Origin: an uncultured virus (IMG/VR IMGVR_UViG_3300044611_001480)
Taxonomy: Duplodnaviria; Heunggongvirae; Uroviricota; Caudoviricetes
Virus record (IMG/VR): IMGVR_UViG_3300044611_001480
Direction: 5' to 3' (one strand)
Length of the DNA stretch: 64,000 nucleotides
This document shows positions 2,322-25,806 of the stretch, one piece after another; positions within the stretch are counted from its first letter, which is position 1; each line of letters opens with the position of its first letter. The notes beneath the pieces are model-generated. The model saw nothing but the letters and a program-made list of their open reading frames with translations, ran no database searches and was not told where the DNA came from. A program made the position numbers and the translations under genes.

Positions 2322-2343
2322 AAAAAAAGTATTATTTACTCAT

Positions 2344-3597
2344 ATGTCTGGAACTTTTAAATTTAAAAGAATTTATACCGAAGGTGCTGCAGCAGAACAT
2401 CCAGATATTGCAGGGCAAAAAGAATTTGCAAGTAAGGCAGATGCCGAAATTGCTCGTAGAAAAGCAGCAAGAGCAAAAAAAGCAGGACCACAACTTCCAA
2501 GTTTTGTTAGAACAATCAAAAAAGAAGAAGTTGAAGTAAATGAAAAAATTGATGTAGGTGCTGATGCTGGTGCAACAATCAGTGATTTCGTACATTCAAA
2601 GAGTAAAACCTTTAAAGGTGATAGTAAGAAGCAAAGAATTAAGAGAGCACTTGGTGCATATTATGGTGCTCAAAAAGAAGAAACTGAAATGAAAGGTAAA
2701 GATCCTTGTTGGAAAAATTATAAAATGGTTGGAACTAAAAAGAAAGGATCAAAAACAGTTCCAAATTGTGTTTCAGAAGAAATTGATTATAGTGATGCTT
2801 ATGATTTTGTAATTGGAACTTTGATTGAGTGTGAATTTGTAGAAGATATTAGTTCTGCGGAAAGAATGTATGAGGCTTTAAGCGAAGATTTTGTGTCTGT
2901 AATTCTTGAAGAATATATTGAAGAAAAAGCAAGAGGAACTAGACCAAAAAGAACAGTACATGCATATGATGTAGATGAGACCTTGTTTTCGCACGGCAAA
3001 AAGGGAAAACCAAATGTAAAGGTTCACGTAAATGATTCATCTGGAAAAAGAGTTAAGAGTTTAAGTAATCAAGAGTTTAATACTCATAAGCTTGAAAAAG
3101 GACATTCTTATGACTTCAGTGAATTTCAAAGTGCCAAAAAGTTCAAAGAAACATCAAGTCCAAATAAAAAGGTAATTAAAGACATTAAGAGAAAGCAAGC
3201 AAGAGGACAAAACGTTCATTTAATTACTGCTCGTTCAAAATTTGATAAACCAAGTGAATTCCAAGGACATCTCAAAAAGCACGGTGTAAACGTAGATAAG
3301 TCAAAGATTCACTACACTGGCGGAATGAGAGGTGGTGATATTGGAAAGAAAAAAGTAGATGTTGCAAATGCAGTAGCAAAGCAGAGTGGAGCTAAAAATA
3401 TTCATATGTATGATGATGCTGAAAAAGTCCATAAGGCATTTGAAAAAGAAAAGAAAAACGCACCAACATCAAAGAAAATAAAAACTCATATGGTTGCACC
3501 AGATAAAAAAGGAGAATCTAGAGTTCGTTCTTATCAGGCAACGAAAGAACAGTTTGATATGACTCCATATGAATATTGGAAACAATACATCGCTTGA
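2344..3597 (+). CDS. Modular hypothetical protein with a C-terminal HAD-like domain
   Basis: HAD motif I YDVDETLF, motif II LITARS, motif IV MYDD; Lys-rich modules separated by EE-rich linkers. Confidence 0.6.
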   Translation: MSGTFKFKRIYTEGAAAEHPDIAGQKEFASKADAEIARRKAARAKKAGPQLPSFVRTIKKEEVEVNEKIDVGADAGATISDFVHSKSKTFKGDSKKQRIKRALGAYYGAQKEETEMKGKDPCWKNYKMVGTKKKGSKTVPNCVSEEIDYSDAYDFVIGTLIECEFVEDISSAERMYEALSEDFVSVILEEYIEEKARGTRPKRTVHAYDVDETLFSHGKKGKPNVKVHVNDSSGKRVKSLSNQEFNTHKLEKGHSYDFSEFQSAKKFKETSSPNKKVIKDIKRKQARGQNVHLITARSKFDKPSEFQGHLKKHGVNVDKSKIHYTGGMRGGDIGKKKVDVANAVAKQSGAKNIHMYDDAEKVHKAFEKEKKNAPTSKKIKTHMVAPDKKGESRVRSYQATKEQFDMTPYEYWKQYIA

Positions 3598-24099: not shown

Positions 24100-24116
24100 T
24101 ATTAAAAAATATTTTT

Positions 24117-24155
24117 TAAACTCTACCTCTAAATAAGGGGTAGAGTTTTTTTTTT
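24117..24155 (+). terminator. Intrinsic terminator
   Basis: AAACTCTACCTCT...GGGGTAGAGTTT plus a long T-run. Confidence 0.7.
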
Positions 24156-24347: not shown

Positions 24348-25043
24348 ATGCGAATAGACCTTCACAATTTTTTTAAGAATTTTGATGAAAATAATCCAAA
24401 GCATGTTGCTGCAGTAGAGCAACTTGAAGTGGATCTTGCAGATAAGAATCCTGATTTGATTGATGATACTTCAAACTGGGTTCGTATTTACAGAACAAAA
24501 CCAACAGTTCCTGGTGTTCTCTCAGTTCCTTATTATCCACAAACAGATAATTACAGAGATGCTCAAAGAACCTGTAATTCATCTGCTTGTGCAATGTGTT
24601 TAGAATACTTTAAACCAGGGACTCTTCAAGGAGCAAAGGGTGATGATGCTTATATTCAAAAAGTATTTGCAATTGGTGACACAACTGACCATACTGTTCA
24701 GACAAAAGTTCTGGAAGGTTATGGAGTTAAGTCACACTTTAGTTACAATCTTTCTTTTGCTGATCTTGATCGTGAGCTTGCTGCTGGGAGACCCATTGTT
24801 ATCGGGATCTATCACAGGGGTACTCTATCTGCTCCTTCTGGTGGGCACATGGTTGTAGTGATTGGTAAGAAGGGTGAAGATTATGTTGTAAATGATCCTT
24901 ATGGTTCTCTGAATGATGGATATACTGGACCTGTAACGAACGGAAAGGGTGCCGTTTATAAGAAGTCTGATCTGATGTATCGTTGGTTAGAGAAAGGAAA
25001 AGATAAGACTGGATGGGGAAGAATCTTTAATGTAAAAAAGTAG
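24348..25043 (+). CDS. C39-like cysteine peptidase domain protein (putative lysin N-part)
   Basis: VPYYPQTDN, RTCNSSACAM (Cys), GGHMVVVIG (His) and VNDPYG (Asp). Confidence 0.85.
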   Translation: MRIDLHNFFKNFDENNPKHVAAVEQLEVDLADKNPDLIDDTSNWVRIYRTKPTVPGVLSVPYYPQTDNYRDAQRTCNSSACAMCLEYFKPGTLQGAKGDDAYIQKVFAIGDTTDHTVQTKVLEGYGVKSHFSYNLSFADLDRELAAGRPIVIGIYHRGTLSAPSGGHMVVVIGKKGEDYVVNDPYGSLNDGYTGPVTNGKGAVYKKSDLMYRWLEKGKDKTGWGRIFNVKK

Positions 25044-25074
25044 AAAGTTCTATTCTGAAAGAAGGAATAGAACT
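25015..25074 (+). promoter_or_regulatory. Candidate programmed -1 frameshift signal
   Basis: A_AAA_AAG at 25034-40, 5-nt spacer, 10-bp hairpin AGTTCTATTC/GAATAGAACT, purine-rich GGGGAAG upstream. Confidence 0.8.
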
Positions 25075-25513
25075 CATTAAAGAATTTGAAAAATGTAAAT
25101 TAGTAGCATATCCAGATCCTCATACTAAAGGAAAACCTTATACTATAGGATGGGGAAGCACTCGTAAGAAGGATGGAAGTCCTTTTAAGTTAGGAGAAAA
25201 GATTAGTCAGAAGGAAGCAGATGAATTATTTGATTGGCAGATTCAAAATGAATTTCTTTCAGCACTGAAACAAATACCTTATTGGAGTGAGATGAATGAT
25301 TATCAGCGCGGTGCTTTATTGTCTTTTGCTTATAACCTTGGTGCTAATTTTTATAATAGTCGAGGATATGACACAATAACCAGAGTTCTTAAGAATAAAG
25401 AATGGGGTAGAGTTCCTGCTGCTCTTGAACTTTACAGAAATCCTGGAAGCGATGTAGAAGCAGGATTATTGAGAAGAAGAATTGCTGAAGGAAAACTTTG
25501 GAGAAAACTATAA
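25034..25513 (+). CDS. GH24 lysozyme domain with no own start codon; predicted to be translated by -1 frameshift as a fusion to the C39 protein
   Basis: The -1 frame reads KKVESSILKEGIELIKEFEKCKLVAYPD...PYTIGWGST...ALLSFAYNLG...GLLRRRIAEGKLW. TAA at 25028-30 closes the frame upstream; the first ATG (25292) lies after the catalytic Glu. Confidence 0.85.
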   Translation, partial: KKVESSILKEGIELIKEFEKCKLVAYPDPHTKGKPYTIGWGSTRKKDGSPFKLGEKISQKEADELFDWQIQNEFLSALKQIPYWSEMNDYQRGALLSFAYNLGANFYNSRGYDTITRVLKNKEWGRVPAALELYRNPGSDVEAGLLRRRIAEGKLWRKL

Positions 25514-25516
25514 ATT

Positions 25517-25618
25517 TCAATCAATATAATCTAATATTAGGATGTAGTATATTACACAAGCAACTGCTATGAGACCAATTCCCAATAATATATTTACACT
25601 CCAAACGGTATCTGTCAT
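25517..25618 (-). CDS. 33-aa single-TM peptide
   Basis: MTDTVWSVNILLGIGLIAVACVIYYILILDYID; ATGA-coupled to the upstream minus-strand ORF. Confidence 0.5.
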   Translation of the reverse strand: MTDTVWSVNILLGIGLIAVACVIYYILILDYID

Positions 25619-25806
25619 TTATTTTCCTGTTTATGTATCCACGTTTTTAACTCGTGCAAATATTGCCTAAGTTGATTTGCTTTTTCTAGATGCCACTCAT
25701 CACCACTCTTAAAGTACTCATGAGTGTGATTATCTATTGCCTTTAGAATGTTATGTATCGGTGTGTTCCAAGGTTCTCTGATAGGAGTATTCCATTCGCG
25801 TGGCAT
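25615..25806 (-). CDS. Hypothetical protein
   Basis: MPREWNTPIREPWN; SD GAGG upstream. Confidence 0.7.
   Translation of the reverse strand: MPREWNTPIREPWNTPIHNILKAIDNHTHEYFKSGDEWHLEKANQLRQYLHELKTWIHKQENK

Follow-up and report, generated by a model that had tools for sequence, protein, structure and literature searches.

The 64,000-nucleotide stretch of DNA analyzed here (the window; IMG/VR record IMGVR_UViG_3300044611_001480, from an uncultured virus) contains a lysin locus in which a peptidase open reading frame (ORF) ends on the heptamer A_AAA_AAG and a GH24 lysozyme without a standard start codon follows in the -1 frame. This arrangement is very probably a classical -1 programmed ribosomal frameshift cassette in a two-enzyme lysin locus, as judged from its sequence and from its relatives. 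An earlier note on this DNA had proposed that a -1 slip at A_AAA_AAG produces a peptidase of 231 amino acids (aa) and a 388-aa fusion, and the conservation of the heptamer, of the frame offset, and of a co-varying hairpin supports that proposal. The frameshift is favored also because the hairpin is absent where the lysozyme has its own ATG. The elements of the junction are listed below, with distances in nucleotides (nt).

24348..25043, plus strand: peptidase ORF, zero-frame product of 231 aa, terminating in TAG
25015..25021, plus strand: GGGGAAG, proposed Shine-Dalgarno (SD)-like element, 12 nt upstream of the heptamer
25028..25030, plus strand: TAA closing the -1 frame, which limits entry to the -1 frame to 25031-25040
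25034..25040, plus strand: slippery heptamer A_AAA_AAG in zero-frame phase
25041..25043, plus strand: zero-frame stop TAG, abutting the 3' end of the heptamer
25046..25074, plus strand: hairpin, arms 25046-25056 and 25064-25074, 7-nt loop, 5-nt spacer after the heptamer
25031..25513, plus strand: -1 ORF with the GH24 lysozyme, catalytic Glu codon 25088-25090, stop 25511-25513

The final codons of the zero-frame ORF (24348..25043) are AAT GTA AAA AAG TAG, and the GTA AAA AAG TAG ending with its in-frame heptamer at 25034-25040 is present as the earlier note had described it. The -1 frame from 25031 to 25513 encodes 160 aa starting CKKVESSILKEGIELIKEFE, and reading after a slip begins with GTA at 25040 and yields 157 aa. 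The frame is closed by the TAA at 25028 and is then open to 25513, with a Pfam match to the intact GH24 lysozyme that had been proposed for it. No ATG, GTG or TTG occurs in the -1 frame between the TAA at 25028-25030 and the catalytic Glu codon at 25088-25090, in agreement with the claim that the lysozyme lacks these codons before its catalytic Glu. The sole standard ORF of the -1 frame is 73 aa long and uses an internal ATG, at 25292.

In the proposed mechanism, translation of the peptidase ORF would in most cases end at its TAG and yield a papain-fold (C39-like) peptidase of 231 aa. Some ribosomes would come to a pause on A_AAA_AAG, carrying Lys-tRNAs and detained by the hairpin that lies 5 nt downstream, and the slowly decoded stop next to the slip site perhaps adds to the pause. 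In E. coli, slipping at AAG is expected to be strong where tRNA-Lys with the UUU anticodon is the only species. The slip, stimulated by the hairpin at the mRNA entrance, may be a tandem slippage on A_AAA_AAG, or slippage at the P site during the wait for decoding of the adjacent stop. After a one-base backward slip, ribosomes would continue in the -1 frame from GTA (Val) and append a short linker and the complete GH24 lysozyme, giving a 388-aa peptidase-lysozyme. Such slipping is predicted to take place in the host, at a rate that would set a fixed ratio of the two products, and both products presumably act on the cell wall at lysis.

The window hairpin consists of 11 base pairs (bp), ten Watson-Crick pairs and a closing U-G, with an energy of -12.6 kcal/mol and a z-score of -4.14; none of 200 shuffles is as stable. 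The earlier note had described a perfect 10-bp hairpin 5 nt after the heptamer, which is confirmed and extended by the U-G pair. No sign of a pseudoknot is seen, as the loop has no complement of at least 4 nt in the next 70 nt. The note had also proposed GGGGAAG as an SD-like stimulator. The element does lie 12 nt upstream of the heptamer, but its letters are part of the invariant W223 G224 R225 codons (GWGR in the alignments of relatives) and are found equally in relatives without the frameshift layout, in all layouts. Because these codons are invariant and are kept without the cassette, GGGGAAG is inseparable from them and gives no independent evidence of a stimulator.

Conservation across related junctions

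Relatives of the locus were collected by peptidase and lysozyme homology, with 80 of 580 relatives kept in one of the scans, and form a set of 83 distinct junctions. A -1 ORF of at least 140 codons follows the peptidase in 70 of the 83, and none that long is present in 13. The heptamer is followed directly by a stop in 40 of the 70 junctions. Within these 40, 28 have no start codon for the lysozyme, 10 have only GTG or TTG at non-conserved linker positions, and two have an ATG, which precedes the stop by 28 nt in one case and follows it by 5 nt in the other; in none of the 40 does an ATG overlap the stop. Seven junctions insert one codon between heptamer and stop, and here the stop is overlapped by ATG in four and by GTG in two, with one lacking a start. 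The remaining 23 junctions have no heptamer, and 21 of them have an ATGA overlap start; the other two, L099 and L111, have no lysozyme motif and were left unscored, and an ATG is listed for each.

The 40 heptamer-stop junctions are uniform in sequence and phase. Lys-Lys is spelt AAA AAG in 40/40, always in the same phase, and no other Lys-Lys spelling occurs. The preceding codon ends in A throughout (GCA 21, GTA 18, ATA 1), and the stops are TAG in 35, TAA in four and TGA in one. Most relatives close the -1 frame at the same position, -13 relative to the zero-frame stop. Between slip site and catalytic Glu, the linker has 11 lengths (codon index 16 to 31), which differ by whole codons and are free of stops; this fits translation from the heptamer on and is unexpected upstream of an internal start. 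A pattern scan of IMG/VR found at least 120 matching stretches, of which 80 were retrieved, giving 69 distinct junctions. The lysozyme is in the -1 frame in 68 of these, 40 of the 68 have no ATG, GTG or TTG, and 33 of the 69 are new to the set. The alignment of homologous loci that the earlier note had suggested as a check thereby finds the heptamer, the frame offset, and the co-varying hairpin conserved across dozens of diverged relatives.

The two domains occur in five layouts. The first is the window type, with heptamer, stop and a start-less -1 frame lysozyme, and it is shared by the cultured phage S-PM2, for which Synechococcus WH7803 serves as laboratory host, and by many uncultured contigs. 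The S-PM2 junction reads GCA AAA AAG TAA, with a -1 lysozyme without a start and a hairpin after 5 nt (z -2.5); the annotated "putative lysin" S-PM2p157 is only the remnant from an internal ATG. S-CAM7, also a cultured phage, carries a different slippery run, GTT TTT TTT (U_UUU_UUU; eight T), with a 5-nt spacer and a hairpin of z -4.65, and its lysin is likewise annotated in truncated form. The eight-T junction (L252, 1590-1660; similar IMG/VR contigs L367 and L369) would be either a second independent slippery site or a site of transcriptional slippage. The second layout, the S-SRM01 type, has the heptamer, one codon, and a TGA overlapped by an ATG or GTG start. The third has no heptamer and reads TTY AAA TGA with an ATGA overlap start, followed by a lysozyme of 152 aa or 204 aa. 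In-frame fusions form the fourth layout, as peptidase-lysozyme in ACG-2014f (405 aa, PHROG 3617) and as lysozyme-peptidase in S-CREM1 (393 aa) and L021. In the fifth, seen in DSL-LC02 and DSL-LC03, the domains are separate genes with spacers. The 204-aa own-start lysozymes also have a conserved 8-bp hairpin, UGCCUGG...CAGGCA, in their extra N-terminal domain, about 58-80 nt after the start (L085, L089, L091, L039, L297 and others).

The association between the hairpin and the layouts was examined in a merged set of 123 distinct rows that were not chosen by pattern; 53 duplicates, 25 loci without both domains, eight with the lysozyme upstream, four with separate genes, and one partial locus were left out. 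z-scores over a stretch of 80 nt were unsuitable for this purpose, as 10 of 25 own-start loci had z below -2 owing to the hairpin in the extra N-terminal domain, about 58 nt downstream and off the junction, and therefore a position-specific criterion was adopted: a helix of at least 8 bp starting no more than 9 nt after the slip site. The counts of loci with such a helix are as follows.

-1 frame, heptamer, no own start: 66/71
-1 frame, heptamer, own start: 2/8
-1 frame, no heptamer, own start: 0/25
In-frame fusion, heptamer: 8/8
In-frame fusion, no heptamer: 0/11

The cassette is associated with start-less lysozymes and also with in-frame fusions of reversed polarity. Relatives that are always in frame or always supplied with their own start would have refuted the frameshift, as the earlier note had pointed out, but 71 of the 123 rows are start-less in the -1 frame.

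Hairpins with z below -2 are found in 33 of the 40 heptamer-stop junctions (median -14.25 kcal/mol) and in one of 21 junctions without the heptamer (median -6.5). Among the seven junctions with heptamer plus one codon, only the start-less one has such a hairpin. The stem begins 4-7 nt after the heptamer in 33 of the 40, and there are 27 distinct arm pairs. Aligning the 40 junctions with MAFFT broke up the 5' arm of window-type stems, and the result was not used for pair counts; instead, a covariance model was made from eight short-loop sequences, to which 35 rows were aligned, two of them stray. In this structure-fitted 35-row alignment, 97.5% of cells are paired compared with 84.0 +/- 1.5 in shuffles (0/500 reach it), changes on both sides are present in six of 11 pairs (4/500 shuffles), and sliding the partners by 1-3 columns leaves 29-50% of cells paired. 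A stable downstream structure is conserved by co-variation, as is characteristic of a -1 frameshift cassette. The hairpin model R1 also matches 24103-24155 on the minus strand, an intergenic position behind a peroxiredoxin-like ORF (29.1 bits, E 0.011), which is probably an unrelated stem-loop.

A peptidase tree, from which the trait's own columns were excluded, served as a phylogenetic control. At least 14 changes of the heptamer state and at least five of the frame relation are required on this tree. Seven independent supported pairs differ in the heptamer; the hairpin follows it in about 5.8 of them and runs counter to it in 0 (median p 0.031).

In some relatives the polarity of the cassette is reversed. 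In ACG-2014f and L272 the zero frame runs into the lysozyme, yet both loci retain heptamer and hairpin, in ACG-2014f as GCA AAA AAG followed after 5-6 nt by the hairpin, and in both the -1 frame reaches a stop three codons from the heptamer start. A slip in these two loci would produce a short peptidase, as in dnaX. A scan for relatives of ACG-2014f covered the best 80 of 358 matches; 82 loci were examined, six of them without a lysozyme match, and the others gave 55 distinct junctions, of which 16 are in frame. These 16 comprise four with A_AAA_AAG and an early -1 stop, two with seven A, and 10 without a heptamer. Hairpins with z below -2 are present in 6/6 in-frame junctions with a heptamer and in 0/10 without one. 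Between L272 and L283, a one-base indel just after the heptamer swaps the polarity. A further observation concerns L273-L277, which have seven A (GTA/ATA AAA AAA GTA) and are in-frame fusions that keep the hairpin, with a -1 stop after 13 codons. These seven-A relatives may be true reversed-polarity variants or homopolymer assembly errors.

Alternative readings of the junction

Transcriptional slippage would account for the fusion without any shift by the ribosome, if the polymerase added an A (a T in S-CAM7) and so made a fraction of mRNA in a single frame. An extra A does yield an in-frame fusion, natural in-frame relatives with seven A are known (L273, L277), and the eight-T run of S-CAM7 is nearer to the lengths at which slippage is known. 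In many bacteria, selection against runs that are prone to slippage is reported to become evident at about nine nucleotides (PMC1088944), longer than the six-A run. The run is six A followed by G in 40/40 junctions, phased as A_AAA_AAG; ribosomes are sensitive to this phase and the polymerase is not. A co-varying hairpin spaced 4-7 nt from the heptamer is likewise a hallmark of ribosomal shifting. No insertion in the A-run is seen in two contig sets from RNA libraries (X19, X20), a weak argument as contigs drop rare variants such as seven-A transcripts. One RNA-library contig crosses the run (25018-25408, 0 gaps) with only 16 letters to its left, and no listed contig record spans the run with 31 letters on both sides. 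Polymerase slippage is on balance an unlikely source of the fusion.

The lysozyme could also be initiated independently at a non-canonical or weak start (ATT, CTG, ATA, or a linker GTG or TTG), perhaps coupled to termination, with the heptamer and hairpin being incidental. Shortly after the stop, the -1 frame of the window contains ATT and CTG, and the ATT of the L-I-K motif is preceded at 9 nt by an AGGA. GTG or TTG is present in the linker of 10 of the 40 relatives, and a few junctions with a TGA stop create a GTG (L080, L148, L207). The AGGA and Ile codon are, however, found equally in relatives with their own upstream ATG and are therefore coding constraints. No candidate start codon is conserved in position across lineages, with 28/40 and 40/68 junctions lacking ATG, GTG and TTG altogether. 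The linker changes in length by whole codons counted from the heptamer (11 lengths), which is not required before an internal start, and independent initiation leaves unexplained why the hairpin is present exactly where the start is missing. Separate initiation is accordingly given little credence. An artifact is more improbable still, whether an assembly error of a simple in-frame fusion or a recent inactivating mutation that left a dead lysozyme. Errors are common in homopolymer runs, and some in-frame relatives have seven A, but an identical six-A junction is found in 13 IMG/VR contigs, each with a different metagenome id, and the independently deposited S-PM2 records have a heptamer-stop junction too. 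Contigs of further runs show no difference across 24752-25045, and no A-run indel is listed in the contigs of two DNA runs (X2, X3) and two RNA-library runs (X19, X20). Assembly error, taken alone, is very unlikely. The lysozyme frame and its catalytic motifs are intact at 57-100% identity across relatives, a state in which a pseudogene would not persist.

Several observations weigh against the frameshift or narrow its scope. The heptamer itself is at chance level in the window (52 AAAAAAG versus 48.5 expected). Some GTG, TTG or ATG lies at a non-conserved position in the linker or just upstream in 12/40 heptamer-stop junctions, where separate initiation may occur, seven of the 40 have a hairpin z above -2, and 5/71 start-less -1 junctions lack an 8-bp helix. 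The heptamer is retained in eight loci with their own lysozyme start, mostly without the hairpin, and Lys-Lys coding or history accounts for part of its conservation. The 25 own-start loci and 11 plain in-frame fusions among the 123 lack the cassette; a set ratio of two products is therefore no general requirement of the lysin family. The pair counts lean toward the fitted structure, and each pair has gaps in 8-22 of the 35 rows; the peptidase tree was built by FastTree only, and a test of the heptamer against the own start has five pairs (p 0.125) and is underpowered. AAAAAAGTAR is found twice in the window against 1.6 expected. The other AAAAAAGTAG of the window (3349-3358) lies within a 424-codon ORF (2323..3597) and was rejected, as it marks no junction. 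Unlike a lone heptamer, the hairpin and the comparative pattern clearly exceed what chance would give.

Protein domains, known systems, and gene neighborhood

The domains encoded in the two frames of the locus are as follows.

24351..24506, plus strand: N-terminal module of about 50 aa, peptidase residues 2-53, recurring in free-standing lysozymes
24519..24902, plus strand: Peptidase_C39_2 domain (PF13529), residues 58-185, E 2.6e-13, 51.2 bits versus a cut-off of 24
25079-25489, plus strand: Phage_lysozyme match, residues 17-153 of the -1 ORF

The peptidase is classed, by the Pfam criteria and a predicted structure, as a papain-fold, C39-like cysteine peptidase. Cys76, Cys81, His167 and Asp183 are invariant columns in the alignments of relatives (A1, A6). 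An AlphaFold model built from 23 sequences (predicted local distance difference test score 72.9, predicted template modeling score 0.71) was compared with solved structures by Foldseek, and the similarity to papain-fold peptidases is moderate (E 4.5e-5 to about 2e-3, template modeling score 0.41-0.48). The matches include the primitive phytochelatin synthase Alr0975, the C39-like peptidase 3erv, staphopain, the peptidase domains of PCAT1 and ComA, and the pseudomurein endoisopeptidase PeiR. No sequence-related solved structure was found for the peptidase at E up to 1. The -1 frame matches Phage_lysozyme (PF00959) with E 2.5e-19 and 70.3 bits versus a cut-off of 22.3, and among its solved relatives (E 1.7e-8 to 5e-6) are 2anv and the GH24 muramidase 8b2s. 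The motif EFE, a D nine residues on in AYPD, and then TIGWG are present; Glu, Asp and Thr in this order make up the catalytic pattern of T4/P22-type lysozymes. PHROG 3617, a fused family, spans both ORFs of the window.

The N-terminal module of the peptidase is covered by no Pfam family. It is 50% identical over 52 aa (E 8e-14) to the N-terminus of the separate lysozyme of DSL-LC03, and it recurs at the N-terminus of free-standing lysozymes in DSL-LC03 and DSL-LC02 (L003, 2267-2420). In the 446-aa L021 fusion, the module is doubled in tandem between lysozyme and peptidase (about 1990-2200). It could be a wall-binding or pairing module, and it may serve the lysozyme within the fusion. As a lead, the module may serve both enzymes and be one possible reason for the fusion, an idea weakened by the 152-aa own-start lysozymes, which lack it.

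Programmed -1 frameshifting is textbook knowledge, and dnaX, IS3 elements and phage tail chaperones are its usual examples. The Escherichia coli dnaX gene (tau/gamma) uses the same A_AAA_AAG with a stem-loop a few nucleotides downstream to make two products that share their N-terminal part. Its polarity, in which the zero frame encodes the long form and a shift leads to a stop within three codons, is seen in ACG-2014f and L272, whereas a shift lengthens the protein in the window, in S-PM2 and in most relatives. Unlike in dnaX, an upstream SD-like stimulator is not demonstrable here, and the gene is a phage cell-wall hydrolase rather than a replication protein. The OrfA/OrfAB arrangement of the IS3 family (IS911, IS150) is similar in that A_AAA_AAG ends the upstream ORF, the downstream ORF in the -1 frame has no efficient start, the fusion is the active long form, and a 3' structure stimulates the shift. 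The parts of the lysin differ in being independent catalytic domains that are separate genes in some relatives, and these relatives show that a gene may encode the lysozyme domain by itself.

The tail assembly chaperone (lambda gpG/gpGT type) is likewise a late gene with a short and a long form produced by a -1 slip. It differs from the lysin in its role in morphogenesis rather than lysis and in its heptamer, and the extension in the lysin is an enzyme domain. Tail chaperones and other structural-gene frameshifts are listed as the usual phage cases in PMC10885494. One-frame two-enzyme endolysins (ACG-2014f, S-CREM1) have the same catalytic domains and the same N-terminal or linker module as the window, but their long form is made without recoding, and both heptamer and hairpin are missing from 10-11 fusions of this kind. 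Full-text literature searches found no account of frameshifting in cyanophage lysins or in endolysins of any kind, some older, possibly relevant papers being beyond reach; the look-ups included PMC5009743, PMC10885494, PMC2908710, PMC10665884 and PMC3483164.

The genes next to the locus resemble hli, peroxiredoxin and psbA, as judged from the window translations and the annotated synteny of DSL-LC03, and the window is therefore assigned to a T4-like cyanophage. The 24 public runs found to contain this DNA are lake and freshwater metagenomes, all in the form of contigs. Within the 64-kb window there is no second homologue of the peptidase or lysozyme domain, and the only tRNAs are tRNA-Gly and tRNA-Met. 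Two small convergent ORFs lie directly behind the lysozyme on the minus strand (25517-25618 and 25615-25806), neither with a Pfam match, and the 33-aa member of the pair has a strongly hydrophobic translation. S-PM2 and S-SRM01 also have two small minus-strand ORFs behind the lysozyme. These ORFs may encode membrane lysis partners.

Meaning for cyanophage lysis

The mechanism proposed for this locus is known, and its use in a lysis enzyme would add a gene class to the -1 frameshift genes. The opposite polarity of the window and S-PM2 versus ACG-2014f and L272, together with at least five frame changes on the peptidase tree, raises the rather speculative idea that the cassette is an evolvable device for lysis dosage, in which a set proportion of peptidase and fusion is needed and single-base indels flip which form depends on the slip. 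If slip efficiency follows the translational state of the host, host physiology would be reflected in the product ratio and thereby in when, or how completely, lysis takes place.

The finding also bears on how lysins are annotated. Current annotations of model cyanophages give a truncated "lysin" (S-PM2p157, S-CAM7) or two unrelated ORFs. The protein that they miss is probably the principal lysozyme-bearing one in these phages. In the mining of metagenomes for lysins, enzymes are missed or truncated unless the frameshift is modeled. The relatives form a natural series of slip-extended, slip-truncated, own-start, plain-fusion, and separate-gene versions of the same two domains, which permits a direct test of why phages keep two-product designs.

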